A stretch of 34,247 bases of DNA, taken from contig JADZFP010000296.1 of the NCBI GenBank assembly GCA_020849825.1, positions 1 through 34,247 of the forward strand, read 5' to 3'. Source of the stretch: Saprospiraceae bacterium (GTDB taxonomy: Bacteria; Bacteroidota; Bacteroidia; Chitinophagales; Saprospiraceae). Both the position numbers and the translations under genes were made by a program. Below the pieces are notes generated by a model. It searched no databases. It worked only from the letters and a program-made list of their open reading frames with translations, and was not told the DNA's origin. Below, one piece after another: positions 9,163 to 23,204 of the stretch; the stretch's first letter is position 1, and every line of letters starts with the position of its first letter.

Positions 9163-9429
9163 ATGCCGCGTTCGCTCAAAAAAGGCCCTTACGTACACCA
9201 CGCACTGACGGAAAAAGTCGCTAAGGCCAAACAAAGCAACAGAAAACAGGTGATCAAAACCTGGAGCCGCGCCTCCATGATCATCCCGGATATGGTCGGC
9301 GAAACCATCGCTGTCCACAACGGCAAAACATTCATCCCGGTGTTCGTCACCGAAAATATGGTTGGCCACAAACTCGGCGAGTTCGCGCCCACGCGCAACT
9401 TCCGCGGCCACGCCGGTAACAGAAAATAA
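9163..9429 (+). CDS. rpsS: 30S ribosomal protein S19
   Basis: 88 aa with [10 protein letters not shown]...[16 protein letters not shown]. Confidence 0.97.
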
Positions 9430-9573
9430 TGTGCTAATGTGCTAATGTGATAATGTGCTAACGTGGATAATGTGAAAATTTTTCACATCCTGCACTTGAG
9501 CAAATCATCAGCATATTACCTAATTGGCACATCAGCACACTCCTAATTAGCACATTAGCACATTAGCACATTT
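9427..9573. repeat. Octamer-repeat palindromic element #1 (TAATGTGC arms / GCACATTA arms), rpsS-rplV spacer
   Basis: The left arm has 3 GTGCTAA copies and the right arm has 3 TTAGCAC copies. The arms are reverse complements. Internal mini-hairpin GTGAAAATTTTTCAC at 9472-9486. Confidence 0.9.
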
Positions 9574-9944: not shown

Positions 9945-9994
9945 CAATAACCCCGATCCACCCTCATTCGCACACTCACTCATTCAACAATACA

Positions 9995-11432: not shown

Positions 11433-11476
11433 GCCCGATCGCCCTCATTCGCTCATTCGCACACCGCTCATTCAAT

Positions 11477-15137: not shown

Positions 15138-15198
15138 TCCGCTTCGTATAGTACAATTATCGCACAATCATTCAATCGCCCATTCGCACATTTATACA

Positions 15199-15717: not shown

Positions 15718-15802
15718 TTTTGTTGTTCGCTGCTGGTTGTTCGTTGCCTGCTCTTTGCACAACAAATAACCAACAACGGCCAACGCACAACGAACAACGA
15801 AC
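15718..15802. repeat. Imperfect palindromic spacer built from TTGTTCG / CGAACAA short repeats (rpsE-rpmD junction)
   Basis: The left half GTTGTTCGCTGCTGGTTGTTCGTTG is complementary to the right half CAACGCACAACGAACAACGAAC. For example, GGTTGTTCGTTG pairs with CAACGAACAAC. Confidence 0.7.
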
Positions 15803-18829: not shown

Positions 18830-19048
18830 ATGGCAAAAGAAGATCTGATCAAACAAGACGGTGTCGTCGCTGAGGCACTCTCCAATGCGAACTTCAAGGT
18901 TCGTCTGGAAAATGGCCACACCATACTGGCGACCATCTCCGGTAAAATGCGGATGCACTATATCCGTATTCTCCCTGGCGACAAGGTTTCCATCGAAATG
19001 TCTCCGTACGACCTGACTCGCGGTCGGATAATTTACAGGTATAAATAA
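18830..19048 (+). CDS. infA: Translation initiation factor IF-1
   Basis: 72 aa with [13 protein letters not shown]...[16 protein letters not shown]. Confidence 0.96.
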
Positions 19049-19103
19049 CTGCCTGATACACAACGATAAAGAACGTTTTTGAACTAAGAAAATAACAGCC
19101 GAC

Positions 19104-19220
19104 ATGAAGGTCAAACCGTCCATCAAGAAGCGCTCCGCAGATTGCAAAATTGTTCGCCGCAAAGGCAAACTTTATGTGATCAACAAGAAAAACCCTAAAT
19201 ACAAACAACGCCAGGGCTAA
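19104..19220 (+). CDS. rpmJ: 50S ribosomal protein L36 (single-Cys, non-zinc-ribbon type)
   Basis: 38 aa, not in the ORF track and read directly: [38 protein letters not shown]. Confidence 0.92.
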
Positions 19221-19267
19221 TTTATCGGCCTGCGTCCAACTTTTGACATTACAACCAACCGCAGAAT

Positions 19268-19645
<378 letters not shown>

Positions 19646-19649
19646 TAAT

Positions 19650-19800
19650 TAATGTGCTAATGTGCTAATGAGATAATGTGCCAATTAAGAGAGCACTTAT
19701 CTGGTTGGTATTCTTAGCCGGTTCAAATAGCCATTAGCACATTAACTAATTAGCATATTATCTAATTAGCACATTGTCAAATTAGCACATTAGCACATTA
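19650..19800. repeat. Octamer-repeat palindromic element #2, rpsM-rpsK spacer
   Basis: 2 GTGCTAA copies on the left and 4 TTAGCAC copies on the right. The central core at 19691-19723 is shared with element #3. Confidence 0.9.
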
Positions 19801-19805
19801 ACAAT

Positions 19806-20198
19806 ATGGCCAAGGGAGCTAGCAAAAAAGTTGTCAAGCGCAAGGTTAAAGTGACGCCGGAAGGCCTCGTCTATATCCACGCCAGCTTCAACAACATCAT
19901 TATCTCGATCACCAACAAGCAAGGCGAAGTGGTATCCTGGGCATCGGCCGGCAAAGCCGGATTCCGCGGCTCGAAGAAAAATACCCCTTACGCTGCACAA
20001 ATCGCTGCCAACGACGCCGCAAAGACGGCTTTCGAGGCAGGCATTCGCGCCGCCGAGGTGTTCGTTAAAGGACCGGGTTCGGGTCGCGAGGCTGCTATTC
20101 GCGCCATCGACCAGTCGGGTATCAAAGTCATGATCATCAACGACGTGACCCCCATGCCCCACAACGGTTGCCGTCCGCCCAAACGCCGCCGCGTTTAA
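19806..20198 (+). CDS. rpsK: 30S ribosomal protein S11
   Basis: 130 aa with [19 protein letters not shown]...[14 protein letters not shown]...[13 protein letters not shown]. Confidence 0.97.
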
Positions 20199-20200
20199 GG

Positions 20201-20390
20201 AATGCGCTAATTAGTTAATGTGCTAATGTGCTAATTAGATAATGTGCTAATTATGAGCGCTTATCAGGTTGGTATTCTTAGCCGGTTTAACTAATCTATT
20301 AGCACATCAATACATTAGCACATTGACTAATTAGCACATTAGCCCCATTACCGAATTAGCACATTAGCACATTATCAAATCAGCACATTA
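20201..20390. repeat. Octamer-repeat palindromic element #3, rpsK-rpsD spacer
   Basis: 3 GTGCTAA copies on the left and 5 TTAGCAC copies on the right. The core at 20255-20287 matches element #2 at 30 of 33 positions. Confidence 0.9.
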
Positions 20391-20396
20391 TCAATA

Positions 20397-21011
20397 ATGG
20401 CTCGTTATACTGGACCAACGACAAAAAAAGCCCGCACGTTCGGCGATTCAATCTACGGCTACGACAAATATTTCGAACGTCGTAAGTATCCGCCCGGACA
20501 GCATGGCCAGGCCCGCAAGAAAAAAGCGGCCTCCAACTATGCTGTGCAGCTGTCTGAAAAACAAAAAGCCAAGTACACCTACGGTGTGCTCGAGCGTCAG
20601 TTCCGCAAGACCTTTCACGACGCCACGCGCCGCCACGGCGTTACCGGCGAAGTGTTGCTCCAACTGCTGGAAGCACGCCTCGACAACACGGTGTACCGCC
20701 TCGGCATCTCCCCGACCCGGCGCGGCGCCCGTCAGTTGGTTGGCCACCGCCACGTGACCGTCAACGGTAAAGTGGTCAATATCCCGTCCTATTCGCTGAA
20801 GCCCGGCGATGTGGTGGCCGTTCGCGGTCGCTCCAAGGGTCTGGAAGTTGTCACTACCCACGTGGGCGCCAAAACCAGCGATGTGCGCAAATTCGGCTGG
20901 CTGGAATGGAACCCCGATAAAATGTCTGGTATCTTCCTGGCCTACCCGCAACGGGATCAGATTCCGGAGAAAATCAACGAACAGCTGATCGTCGAGTTGT
21001 ACTCGAAATAA
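20397..21011 (+). CDS. rpsD: 30S ribosomal protein S4
   Basis: 204 aa with [13 protein letters not shown] and an S4 RNA-binding domain ([13 protein letters not shown]...[14 protein letters not shown]). Confidence 0.97.
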
Positions 21012-21164
21012 GCCTGATGATAGCGGAAAAGGTTGGCGCTCCCGGTGGGACGTCAACCATTTCCGCGTTTTTGCGTTTAAACCCGCCGCCCAAAACTAAA
21101 CGCGACAATCCCCGAATCTTCAATTGCTTTTTCCCACCTCACTCAATTCGGAGCAATCCATACC

Positions 21165-22163
21165 ATGAGTATTCTCAATTTCCAAAAGCCCGACAAAATC
21201 CTGCTCCAAAAAGCAACGGACTTTGAAGGCACTTTTGAATTCAAACCCCTCGAACCGGGCTTCGGCCAAACGGTTGGCAACTCTCTCCGTCGCGTACTCC
21301 TTTCCTCGCTTGAAGGCTTCGCCATCAGCGCTGTACGCATCGGCGGTGTCGACCACGAGTTCGCTACGATGCGTGGCGTCGTGGAAGACGTGGTAGACAT
21401 CGTGCTCAACCTCAAACAGGTTCGAATCAAACAACTTATCCAGGACGAAAAACTCCAGCAGGAGAAAATCTACCTGACCATCAGCGGTCGGGAAGAATTC
21501 CGTGCCGGAGATATCGAAGAATTCACCAACGTGTTCAAGGTGATGAACCCGGAACTCCTGCTTTGCCGCATGGAACCCTCCGTCAACCTCGAACTGGAAC
21601 TCACCATCACCAACGGCCGCGGCTACCAGCCCGCCGATGATATGGTGCCGAAAGACGCCGCTATCGGCGTTATCCCGATCGACGCGATCTACACGCCCAT
21701 CAAAAACGTGGCGTACAAAGTGGAAAATACTCGTGTCGGCCAGCGCACCGACTACGAAAAACTCACCATCGATGTGAAAACCGACGGCACCATCCACCCG
21801 GAAGATGCCATCCGCGAAGCAAGCCGTATCCTGATCCAGCACCTTATGCTGATCACCGACGACAACATCACTTTCGATACGCCGCAAAGCCGCGAGGAAA
21901 ATGTAGTGGACGAGCACATCCTCCACATGCGCAAACTGCTCAAAACCTCGCTCGAAGATCTGGACCTCAGCGTACGCGCCTACAACTGCCTCAAGGCAGC
22001 CAAAATCAATACGCTGGCCGAACTGGTCAAATACGACACCCACGAACTGCTCAAATTCCGCAACTTCGGCAAAAAGTCGCTCGTGGAAATCGAAGAACTC
22101 CTCCAGGAAAAAGGCCTCACTTTCGGCATGGACCTGGCGAAATACAAACTGGACGAAGAGTAA
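21165..22163 (+). CDS. rpoA: DNA-directed RNA polymerase subunit alpha
   Basis: 332 aa with PLEPGFGQTVGNSLRRVLLSSLEG. C-terminal domain has LDLSVRAYNCLKAAKINTLAELV. Confidence 0.97.
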   Translation: MSILNFQKPDKILLQKATDFEGTFEFKPLEPGFGQTVGNSLRRVLLSSLEGFAISAVRIGGVDHEFATMRGVVEDVVDIVLNLKQVRIKQLIQDEKLQQEKIYLTISGREEFRAGDIEEFTNVFKVMNPELLLCRMEPSVNLELELTITNGRGYQPADDMVPKDAAIGVIPIDAIYTPIKNVAYKVENTRVGQRTDYEKLTIDVKTDGTIHPEDAIREASRILIQHLMLITDDNITFDTPQSREENVVDEHILHMRKLLKTSLEDLDLSVRAYNCLKAAKINTLAELVKYDTHELLKFRNFGKKSLVEIEELLQEKGLTFGMDLAKYKLDEE

Positions 22164-22164
22164 G

Positions 22165-22316
22165 TTAATGTGCTAATTAGTTAATGTGCTAATGTGCTAA
22201 TGACAAGGTTGTGTGCTATTTTTTCGAAACATGAGAAAAGCACTCAGCGCCCCGGAAAAGTCCACATCCGCCCATTAGCACATTGGCATATTAACCAATT
22301 AGCACATTAACACACA
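22165..22316. repeat. Octamer-repeat palindromic element #4, rpoA-rplQ spacer
   Basis: 3 GTGCTAA copies on the left and 2 TTAGCAC copies on the right. It has its own core, including the hairpin GTGCTATTTTTTC...GAGAAAAGCAC. Confidence 0.85.
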
Positions 22317-22394
22317 TTTTTTAACAAGTGCAGTAACCGTCGAGCGTCTTCAAGGGCTTGCCCCGGTGCTGCCACCTAAACTTAGGTACATCTC

Positions 22395-23114
22395 ATGCGA
22401 CACGGAGATAAAGTAAACAACCTCGGACGCACCGCGTCCCACCGCCGCGCCCTGCTGGCCAACCTGGCAAACGCCCTCATCGAACACAAACGCATCAACA
22501 CCACCCTGGCCAAGGCCAAAGCCCTGCGCCGCTACGTGGAGCCTCTGGTGACCAAAGCCAAAGACAATACCACCCACTCCCGCCGCGTGGTATTCAGCTA
22601 CCTGCAGAACAAAGACGCCGTCAAGGAACTGTTCAGCACCGTTGCCGCCAAAATCGGCGACCGCCCGGGCGGTTACGTTCGCATCATCAAACTCGGCTTC
22701 CGCCGGGGCGACGGCGCCGAAGTAGCCATGATCGAGTTTGTGGATTTCAACGAAACCTACAACCCGAAAGCCGGTAAAGAAGCCACGAAGAAGAAAACCC
22801 GTCGCGGCAACAAAAAGCCCACGGAATCCAAAGTCAGCGCCAAAGTAACCGAAGCCAAAGCCGCCGCTGCCGCTGCGCCGGTCGTGGAGGAAGAAGTAGC
22901 CCCGGTCGTTGAAGAAACCGTGGCCGCTATCGAGGAAACGCCTGTTGTGGAAGAAACGGTTGCTGCTGTTGAAGAAACCGCACCCGTTGTAGAAGAAACC
23001 GTAGCCGCCGTGGAAGAAACGGTTGCTGCTGTTGAAGAAGCGCCCGCCGCCGAGCCCGAGGCCCCCGCTGCCGAAGAAACGACGGAAGAAGAAAAGAAAG
23101 ACGAAGAAGCCTGA
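22395..23114 (+). CDS. rplQ: 50S ribosomal protein L17 with a roughly 115-aa Lys-rich then acidic Ala/Val/Glu/Thr repeat tail
   Basis: 239 aa. [21 protein letters not shown] is the canonical start. The tail carries repeated [12 protein letters not shown] units. Confidence 0.95.
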
Positions 23115-23148
23115 TTTCCCGGGTCAATCGATTTCAAGATACCATGCG

Positions 23149-23187
23149 AGAGCCGCTCCGAGTGTTCGGGGCGGCTCTTGTTGTTTG
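23149..23187 (+). terminator. Rho-independent terminator closing the ribosomal-protein cluster
   Basis: Stem AGAGCCGCTCCG / CGGGGCGGCTCT (13 bp including one G-U pair) with a 6-nt loop, then TTGTTGTTT. Confidence 0.75.
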
Positions 23188-23204
23188 GTGGACTGGAAAG
23201 GAGC

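Follow-up and report, generated by a model that had tools for sequence, protein, structure and literature searches.

The rpsM-rpsK spacer of a Saprospiraceae S10-spc-alpha ribosomal-protein cluster is filled by a palindrome whose arms consist of tandem octamers. The cluster lies on contig JADZFP010000296.1, of which 34,247 nt of the forward strand were analyzed (referred to below as the window). We consider it about an even bet (probability near 0.5) that the element at 19649-19801 is one copy of a palindromic family resembling foldback elements and miniature inverted-repeat transposable elements (MITEs), with tandem-octamer arms, and that it was recently enlarged and is tolerated as a by-product rather than serving as a dedicated regulator. 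The octamer family is not specific to ribosomal-protein operons, because its members also stand beside unrelated genes and at the late-operon junctions of phages.

An initial annotation, made from the letters of the window, had described an octamer-armed palindrome occupying the whole spacer, and the sequence of 19646-19805 (160 nt, GC 0.32) bears this out (Table 1). The left arm is G/T-rich and carries TAA and ATG in every consensus unit. The right arm is G-poor, AUG-free and purest beside the ATG; its final units end at 19800/19801, so that it does stop 5 nt ahead of the rpsK start codon as described, and its last CACATT ends 6 nt ahead of that codon. With one stop codon per consensus unit, three successive units stop every frame on both strands. 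The best inverted repeat has 39-nt arms that are 90% complementary. Shifted pairing registers are nearly as good, because the right arm (about nine units) is longer than the left (about five units). Within the window, the core 21-mer GGTTGGTATTCTTAGCCGGTT is found only at 19703-19723 and 20267-20287. Elsewhere among the loci compared it recurs only in L132, a contig with near-identical spacers, and it has no matches in the JGI metagenomes, which suggests that the core is local to this lineage.

Relatives were defined as contigs encoding S11 or S13 identical to that of the window; the S11 genes of L120-L124 are identical to the window's rpsK, and its rpsM product is identical to those of the S13 genes (Pfam Ribosomal_S13) of related contigs. 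Judged from their spacers, the long palindrome is shown to be a recent, lineage-specific enlargement of an older short array before the rpsK ATG. L132 has the same rpsM-rpsK spacer as the window, and its rpsK-rpsD spacer differs by one base, in the right arm. The other retrieved contigs that span rpsM-rpsK (11 compared) have a spacer of 83 nt, versus 160 nt in the window. This shorter spacer opens at the stop with a single degenerate unit (TAATGTGT), continues with a small G+C hairpin and ends in CACATTAGCACATTAACTCATTAGCACATTAGCACATAAAAAT-ATG; it holds about three start-proximal units and is without the long left arm and core. Its predicted fold, controlled like those of other Saprospiraceae spacers with mononucleotide shuffles, joins the stop region to the first unit by 11 bp and leaves about 31 nt free ahead of the ATG. 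The rpsK-rpsD spacers of the relatives measure 112 or 122 nt, versus 198 nt in the window, contain one or two exact TTAGCAC 7-mers and are likewise without the long left arm and core. The rpsS-rplV junction of L125 is only 19 nt long (TAA-TTAGCACATT-TTCAATAAA-ATG), and after rpoA a one-unit version is found in L120 and an unrelated hairpin in L122. The short arrays of the relatives thus indicate that the start-proximal GCACATTA array is the older part, to which the window's lineage recently added a long left arm, a core and further units. The absence of the long element from close relatives weakens the case for an essential regulatory role. The implied picture of a structure purpose-built for this operon does not hold either, given the 83-nt spacer of the relatives and the octamer arrays beside unrelated genes and in phage late operons.

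The window contains four such elements. GTGCTAA occurs 25 times, 11 on the plus and 14 on the minus strand, which matches exactly the earlier estimate of about 11 GTGCTAA and 14 TTAGCAC. All copies are confined to 9431-9569, 19654-19796, 20220-20370 and 22170-22305; 2.7 copies are expected, and none of 100 shuffles of the window reaches 25. The rpsM-rpsK and rpsK-rpsD elements align through arms, core and arms with 86% identity over 164 positions, and the rpsS-rplV and rpoA-rplQ elements have only the arms in common with the other elements of the window. Variant units, read by eye, are mirrored in the left and right arms of the rpsM-rpsK and rpsK-rpsD copies. On this evidence the arms are therefore an inverted duplication of one array and not two independent arrays. 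The initial annotation had placed every GTGCTAA on the promoter-proximal side and every TTAGCAC on the distal side. The order is real and says nothing about orientation to transcription, because a palindrome of this kind keeps its left/right order when read on the other strand; orientation is readable only from the centre. The element-bearing spacers have a GC content of 0.32-0.39, compared with 0.54 for the whole window, and the first and last of the four elements end in T5-T6 runs.

The arm sequence is widespread. A search of a species-representative genome set with the 20-mer TAATGTGCTAATGTGCTAAT found at least 119 matching stretches, versus about one expected by chance as estimated from database size, and the sequence around each locus was analyzed as an 8-kb stretch. 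The statistics that follow refer to the 223 arrays at loci among the matches listed. Almost all of these matches are Bacteroidota, of many orders, with Bacteroidales, Chitinophagales, Sphingobacteriales, Flavobacteriales, Cytophagales, Saprospiraceae, Ignavibacteria and Chlorobiota represented. The arrays have a median of 5 and a maximum of 36 units, and the consensus unit is TAAT[G/T]TGC, not TAACTGA, with a conserved 6-mer AATGTG/CACATT at an 8-bp period. Each of the 166 arrays for which both flanks could be called is intergenic. Paired arrays, defined as opposite-sense arrays at most 300 nt apart, follow the order TAATGTGC...GCACATTA in 34 cases in other genomes and the reverse order in none. 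Single arrays abut genes: the outer end is nearer to the gene boundary than the inner end in 89 of 110 (p = 4e-11; medians of 26 and 129 nt), with start codons forming that boundary in 63 and stop codons in 47. The outer, gene-proximal half is also the purer one (79 to 32 arrays, p = 5e-6). Between the last CACATT and the first ATG of the following open reading frame (ORF), a distance of exactly 6 nt is the most frequent (26/83 overall); in host genomes alone it is 6 nt in 9/47 and 3-9 nt in 23/47. On the stop side, a repeat unit itself provides the TAA stop codon in 31 of 107 cases, a figure that is partly artefact because the array stops every reading frame. Repeats adjacent to arrays are also shared between loci within single host genomes. 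Flaviaesturariibacter (L037) carries an octamer palindrome in its rpoA-rplQ spacer, and several contigs, such as L003, L027, L050, L080 and L095, end inside arrays.

Some individual loci among the matches deserve mention. The sole other named phylum among those listed is Verrucomicrobiota, represented by three short contigs of 4.7-6.7 kb (L017, L024 and L095) from a metagenome-assembled genome (MAG) of Candidatus Didemnitutus; they have arrays of up to 36 units and their binning is unchecked, so they could reflect mis-binning or real transfer. One further match, L108, is labelled only as an uncultured bacterium. A Saprospiraceae MAG (L091, 3411-3655) holds an octamer palindrome outside any ribosomal-protein operon, in which the stop is fused to the first unit, the core and right arm are duplicated together, and the end reads CACATTAAAAAA-ATG; this contig has 97% protein identity to the right end of the window, and the homologous region lies just beyond it. 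In a Crocinitomicaceae MAG (L046, 1269-1824) a tandem repeat of about 52 nt, in at least eight copies, stops a few nt ahead of an ATG, each copy comprising two or three GCACATTA units, ATTAGCAA units and a small G+C hairpin (CCCGAAGGATCGGGAC).

The same 20-mer is found in 23 phage stretches of IMG/VR. One siphovirus contig group (GC 0.52) carries 4-7 full palindromes per 10-14 kb, and these fill gaps between co-directional late genes: TerS/TerL, portal/protease, after the major head protein, and major tail/amidase. The major capsid protein of this group is 75% identical to that of Bacuni_F1, a cultured phage of Bacteroides uniformis, in which the corresponding junctions overlap or measure 6-39 nt; the phage palindromes are therefore gains. 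The phage stretch L222 has at least five copies with a common core of about 50 nt at 91-98% identity. Within phage loci, 19 pairs of cores share an orientation and 12 are opposite, while all flanking genes point in one direction, so that the core has no strand-specific RNA role. At the level of sequence, cores in both orientations are the signature of what appears to be a multi-copy element inserting regardless of strand.

The folding of 19640-19815 had been proposed in the initial annotation, and a stable hairpin is indeed predicted (-58.1 kcal/mol, z = -7.1, with none of 200 shuffles as stable). The minimum-energy fold has 30 arm-to-arm pairs (21 + 9), about half the stem of roughly 60 bp that had been anticipated. 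The spacers rpsS-rplV, rpsK-rpsD and rpoA-rplQ fold at -55.6, -71.6 and -94.5 kcal/mol, respectively, and the z-scores of all four range from -7.0 to -9.2. As foreseen, the rpsK start would sit at the foot of the stem, since the predicted hairpin reaches the rpsK initiation region and its foot is 5 nt from the ATG.

Bacteroidota ribosomes ignore Shine-Dalgarno (SD) sequences and are thought to need open leaders, and the initial annotation had found the hairpin hard to reconcile with this. Initiation in the phylum has been described as SD-independent and structure-sensitive, being tuned in Flavobacterium johnsoniae by mRNA structure and upstream adenines (Baez 2019, PMC6847099). To express the conflict in numbers, the opening cost was defined as the ensemble cost of making positions -20 to +12 single-stranded, and was computed for 28 genes of the operon. 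The value for rpsK is 19.7 kcal/mol, and the other 27 genes span 4.2 to 13.3 kcal/mol (rplV, 13.3; rplQ, 10.2; rpsD, 7.8; the remaining 24, 4.2-12.3; operon median about 7.5). The clash is thus real for rpsK and weaker for rplV, and does not extend to rpsD and rplQ, which fall within the normal range; about 30 nt of array stay free ahead of the rpsD ATG in the predicted rpsK-rpsD structure. In an alternative register of the rpsM-rpsK element, in which the left arm pairs with the inner units of the right arm, 37 nt are left free at -38.8 versus -58.1 kcal/mol. This free-leader register would be the first to form during transcription.

The scans of the element itself were largely empty. The terminator scan reports no intrinsic terminator at 19646-19805, where the stem is A+T-rich and followed by ACAAUAUG, and the apparent real terminator of the operon is at 23146-23181. 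The sigma-70 promoter and terminator scan gave nothing meaningful, its model not covering Bacteroidota promoters. The variant unit TAATTTGC was considered as a Bacteroidetes -7 box (TAnnTTTG) and rejected by eye, as it has TTG and not TTTG. Rfam at gathering thresholds has no matches in the window. In E-value mode over 19000-23200 the rpsM-rpsK element matches nothing, and the neighbouring elements match only plant miRNA-precursor models, far below threshold and once on both strands. Exact-sequence searches of the literature turned up no paper containing the octamer repeat.

How a mobile, tolerated palindrome might behave at this junction can be outlined. The family would have spread by a copy-and-insert or a template-switch/gene-conversion process, and would survive at junctions because its ends are compatible with translation: stop codons in all frames come from the 5' arm, and the 3' arm serves as a G-poor, AUG-free leader with its last CACAUU about 6 nt ahead of the AUG. 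The element is presumably co-transcribed with the operon, and its arms would pair in the mRNA, so that the rpsM stop and the rpsK start would meet at the foot of a stem of about 30 bp. Ribosomes finishing rpsM would then have to open the base of the stem for S11 to be made, through translational coupling or re-initiation. The S13-S11-S4 block is translationally coupled in E. coli. The hairpin may enforce coupling while being a tolerated by-product. Alternatively, the kinetic register described above, with the left arm on inner right-arm units, could leave about 37 nt free, or the spacer could be processed by a nuclease.

Several observations weigh against a mobile and merely tolerated element, and we gather them here. 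No target-site duplication is visible when the rpsS-rplV and rpsM-rpsK elements are compared with empty or tight junctions, nor when the phage TerS/TerL element is compared with its tight counterpart; within such repetitive arms, a 2-nt TA duplication is not distinguishable at the junctions. Distant arm pairs, 0.6-2.2 kb apart, enclose ordinary genes or nothing, and no transposase or other mobilising gene was found between them. About two thirds of the arrays are one-armed (110, versus 56 paired), where a simple MITE model predicts otherwise. The arms also grow separately, through tandem duplications of a 16-nt double unit, which makes in-situ slippage a contributor. Arrays are kept at orthologous sites of diverged genomes, for example after rpoA in the window and in Flaviaesturariibacter, and this persistence, together with the sharp CACATT-N6-ATG spacing, may reflect a selected function and not mere tolerance. 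With a ribosome footprint modelled at the rpsM stop, the rpsK opening cost falls from 19.7 to 11-12 kcal/mol, so that the predicted barrier is cleared only partly, because the remaining repeats re-register. Finally, arm mismatches were sorted into G·U and A·C as a test of selection for pairing in the sense RNA. Host elements have 10 and 9, respectively, which is no bias. Phage elements have 22 and 101, which is the wrong way round, in copies that are not independent; the excess stems from a systematic TAATATGC left-arm unit opposite GCACATTA and from orthologous copies. In these comparisons there appears to be no evidence for selection on the hairpin in the sense RNA.

Much of this would fit the main rival, which strikes us as unlikely overall and yet as the one that survives best. 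It holds that the arrays are a selected leader, (GCACAUUA)n, acting as an SD-independent, unstructured landing site (perhaps for bS1), and a selected trailer, (UAAUGUGC)n, both grown by slippage, with an incidental hairpin and no transposition. One-armed arrays are in the majority, arms expand independently, the purest end of an array lies beside the gene, and the gap between the last CACATT and the ATG is most often an SD-like 6 nt. Relatives retain the start-proximal array, and G-poor repeats also make up other leaders of the operon. Bacteroidetes sequences around start codons are depleted in AUG (PMC6847099), and GCACAUUA is AUG-free; the TAACTGA heptamers, as outlined in PMC4679880, offer a precedent. 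What this account leaves unexplained is the non-repetitive core of about 50 nt in both orientations in one phage genome, the 4-7 phage palindromes at junctions that are tight in a relative, and the mirrored variant units of the window arms. It would also assign two unrelated RNA roles to one double-stranded motif (63 start and 47 stop boundaries), and the rare, patchy arrays can be no general initiation signal. The rival is nevertheless compatible with a mobile element, if that element was shaped by, or exploited for, translation.

A more speculative proposal, which we regard as doubtful, treats the octamer palindrome as a portable 'junction module' for SD-less translation that transmits or enforces coupling across a long spacer, and with which phages punctuate their late operons. 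The 5' arm, (UAAUGUGC)n, would provide overlapping UAAUG stop-start mini-cistrons (AUG-UGC-UAA) that could hold a terminating ribosome and let the stem be unzipped. The 3' arm, (GCACAUUA)n, would be an AUG-free, G-poor runway with its last CACAUU at an SD-like 6 nt from the AUG. In a stronger form, CACAUU at -12 to -7 may be recognised by the Bacteroidota 30S subunit, through a protein or rRNA, as an alternative ribosome-binding signal. What is unusual about the family is the use of one octamer for the arms phylum-wide and in phages, the flush stop-start placement, the strict arm order and the SD-like spacing in a phylum without SD pairing.

Spacers of more distant lineages bear on the view that such hairpins are dedicated signals. 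Palindromes of other units (TAATGGGA/TCCCATTA, CAATGTGG/CCACATTG, GGTTACAA/TTGTAACC and GTTGATTG/CAATCAAC) stand in the corresponding spacers of the operon in lineages at 89-93% S11 identity and in another Saprospiraceae MAG, L083. These again have a G/T-rich 5' arm and a G-poor 3' arm beside the ATG, and usually leave about 35 nt of free G-poor leader past the stem. Their recurrence with different arms could reflect selection, or the way in which the elements are made. In one lineage with 89% S11 identity the rpsM-rpsK spacer is 25 nt long and has no hairpin, and in most other Bacteroidota sampled it measures 6-50 nt.

Correia and enterobacterial repetitive intergenic consensus (ERIC) elements are cut by RNase III or RNase E, intergenic sites of phage T7 are cut by RNase III, and repetitive extragenic palindromic (REP) sequences stabilise upstream mRNA. 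By analogy, the octamer palindrome might be a dedicated processing or stability signal, in which an RNase III cut frees a stabilised upstream mRNA and an rpsK leader, or a REP-like hairpin protects the 3' end. The stem base, with 21-23 uninterrupted pairs, would suit such a role. So would the location of the elements in polycistronic units with high expression, namely the ribosomal-protein operon and the late operons of phages (behind the major head and major tail genes), and the recurrence of hairpins with different arms in the same spacers of other Saprospiraceae. We find this hypothesis slightly harder still to credit than the junction module. The element is absent from close relatives with identical flanking proteins, and a lineage with 89% S11 identity manages with a 25-nt spacer. 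Mismatches have no G·U bias in sense RNA, the phage arms have a systematic A·C mismatch in the sense strand, and Rfam gives only sub-threshold plant miRNA hairpins, on both strands.

Least probable is an array of DNA-level binding sites (for a nucleoid-associated protein, a regulator, or as a phage 'stoperator'-like site), arranged head-to-head about the spacer centre: it would accommodate the presence in phages and hosts, the fixed 8-bp period of AATGTG/CACATT, a polarity that is the same on both strands whatever the direction of the flanking genes (63 starts, 47 stops) and the lack of an RNA-strand signal, but with an 8-bp period neighbouring sites would face different sides of the helix, known operators are much shorter than the longest arrays (36 units), the close fit to stop and start codons and the N6 spacing point to translation, and no candidate protein was found. 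The RNase III site, an operon regulatory RNA and the DNA-binding array are all less likely than the mobile-element and leader/trailer views.

Other parts of these spacers and of the operon are worth recording. A conserved G+C-rich, structured stretch (GCAGTAACCGTCGAGCG...GCCCCGGTGCTGCCACCTAAACTTAGGTAC) at 22320-22394 lies directly upstream of rplQ (L17). It is retained in relatives whose preceding palindrome differs, with apparent compensatory changes such as ACCG/CGGT in the window versus ATTG/CAAT in L136, and may be an L17 leader, with no Rfam match. The rpsD-rpoA spacer (21012-21164) contains a long, conserved hairpin (GCGGAAAAGGTTGGCGCTCC..GGGACGTCAACCATTTCCGC), with a second stem and a G-poor leader downstream of it. 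This hairpin shows small changes in L120, L122, L135 and L136 and is not built of octamers; it could be an attenuator, a terminator or a protein-binding site. The window RpoA has no exact match on record. The gene rpmJ (L36, 38 aa), which falls below the 50-aa limit of the ORF list, is at 19104-19220 between infA and rpsM, so that the apparent 219-nt infA-rpsM gap is in fact two short spacers. The leaders of S3, L29, S17, S5 and L30 (rpsC, rpmC, rpsQ, rpsE and rpmD) are also G-poor, with short imperfect repeats (CATTCGCAC, CTCATTCG and CAACGAA) and no complementary arm.

Two further kinds of repeat were seen in other genomes. In a Saprospiraceae MAG (L012, 1700-1900) the unit shifts stepwise through GTGGTGTG, GTGATGTG, CTGATGTG, CTAATGTG and TTAATGTG, and a complementary ATTAGCAA/ATTACCAA arm follows the graded array; the series reads like a history of how slippage changed the unit. 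Another conserved motif, CTGCCGGATCC..GGTGC..GGGGAGG(A/T)G, is found in the 91-243-nt S13-S11 spacers of several unrelated metagenomic Bacteroidota and Flaviaesturariibacter (L147, L169, L209, L172 and L037). It may be a structured leader, because it holds an SD-like GGGGAGG in a phylum without SD pairing.

Table 1. Positions of the palindromic elements and related features in the window
Feature	Position	Strand	Remarks
rpsM (S13) stop codon TAA	19643..19645	+	ORF 19268-19645; 3 nt ahead of the left arm
Left arm, about 5 tandem octamers: TAATGTGC TAATGTGC TAATGAGA TAATGTGC CAATTA	19649..19687	+	Direct-repeat family, inverted repeat, array scan 19644-19687
Core/loop, 42 nt, includes GGTTGGTATTCTTAGCCGGTT	19688..19729	+	
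Right arm, about 9 units of GCACATTA type	19730..19801	+	Direct repeats at 8-nt spacing, inverted repeats, array scan 19730-19810
rpsK (S11) start codon	19806..19808	+	ORF 19806-20198; 5 nt past the stem foot
rpsS-rplV element, same arm family, unrelated core	9427..9573	+	rpsS stop is the TAA of the first unit
rpsK-rpsD element, paralogous copy (arms and same core, same orientation)	20199..20396	+	
rpoA-rplQ element, same arm family, unrelated core	22164..22320	+	Conserved rplQ leader follows
G-poor repeat leaders, examples	9945-9994, 11433-11476, 15138-15198, 15718-15802		

How internal genes of long Bacteroidota operons are started, and how their stoichiometry is controlled, is poorly understood. 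The octamer family amounts to a collection of natural insertions on which coupling, re-initiation and the requirements for a leader can be tested. On the practical side, the arrays end contigs in several assemblies, inflate the spacers of ribosomal-protein operons used in phylogenomics and could pass for regulatory RNAs. Should the repeats prove to be nothing more than selfish DNA, they would plainly exemplify a mobile element that has been moulded so as to do no harm within essential operons.

Among known systems, MITEs and the palindromic doublets known as REPINs (Correia elements of Neisseria, ERIC, REP doublets; REPINs, PMC3116915) are also strictly intergenic, multi-copy and able to fold as RNA hairpins, and co-transcription with neighbouring genes, which is probable here, is a further likeness to MITEs. 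Like MITEs, the elements are small (150-200 nt) and non-coding with terminal inverted repeats (39-nt arms, 90% complementary), and they occur in several copies that have internal sequence in common, in either orientation (the L222 cores; the two window copies at 86%). Unlike MITEs, they show no target-site duplication at the junctions compared, their arms are tandem 8-nt arrays of variable unit number, and one arm sequence is common to a whole phylum and its phages. A tandem repeat joined to inverted ends is also seen, again in a Bacteroidota genome, in the BrickBuilt MITE of Porphyromonas gingivalis; its copies lie 49-591 nt from genes (PMC4596501), whereas the octamer element is flush between a stop and the next start. 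REP sequences are summarized in PMC3733652 as imperfect palindromes of 20-40 bp with a GTAG or CGTC tag at one end. The arms described here begin with TAATGTGC, form arrays of 40-100 nt and have no GTAG/CGTC head. Foldback and Galileo elements of Drosophila (PMC3573991) have long terminal inverted repeats that are built of short tandem repeats and can fold back. They are eukaryotic, of kilobase scale and have a known transposase (of the P superfamily for Galileo), so the likeness is one of architecture alone.

In structure-mediated coupling and at the RNase III hairpins of phage T7, a stem closes the downstream start, as is predicted here, and here too a terminating ribosome or a nuclease would open it; the octamer element differs in being dispensable in close relatives and not specific to one operon. 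The nearest parallel in placement is with the TAACTGA heptamer arrays, which according to MacGregor 2015 (PMC4679880) lie 1-43 nt upstream of starts, including those of ribosomal-protein operons, in some Bacteroidetes. These arrays and the short tandemly repeated repetitive (STRR) sequences of cyanobacteria share with the octamers short, oriented tandem units a few nt upstream of starts and a patchy taxonomic distribution, and the same text notes that the spacers of close relatives are shorter and repeat-free. The octamer arrays fit this pattern of start-proximal arrays with a 5-11-nt unit, having an 8-nt period and a CACATT-ATG distance that peaks at 6 nt, but the unit is the octamer TAATGTGC and not TAACTGA. 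In the BOGUAY genome, only one of 170 repeat sets is given as indirect (inverted) in PMC4679880, and neither a common core nor phage copies are described for TAACTGA; about a third of the octamer arrays, by comparison, are paired into palindromes.

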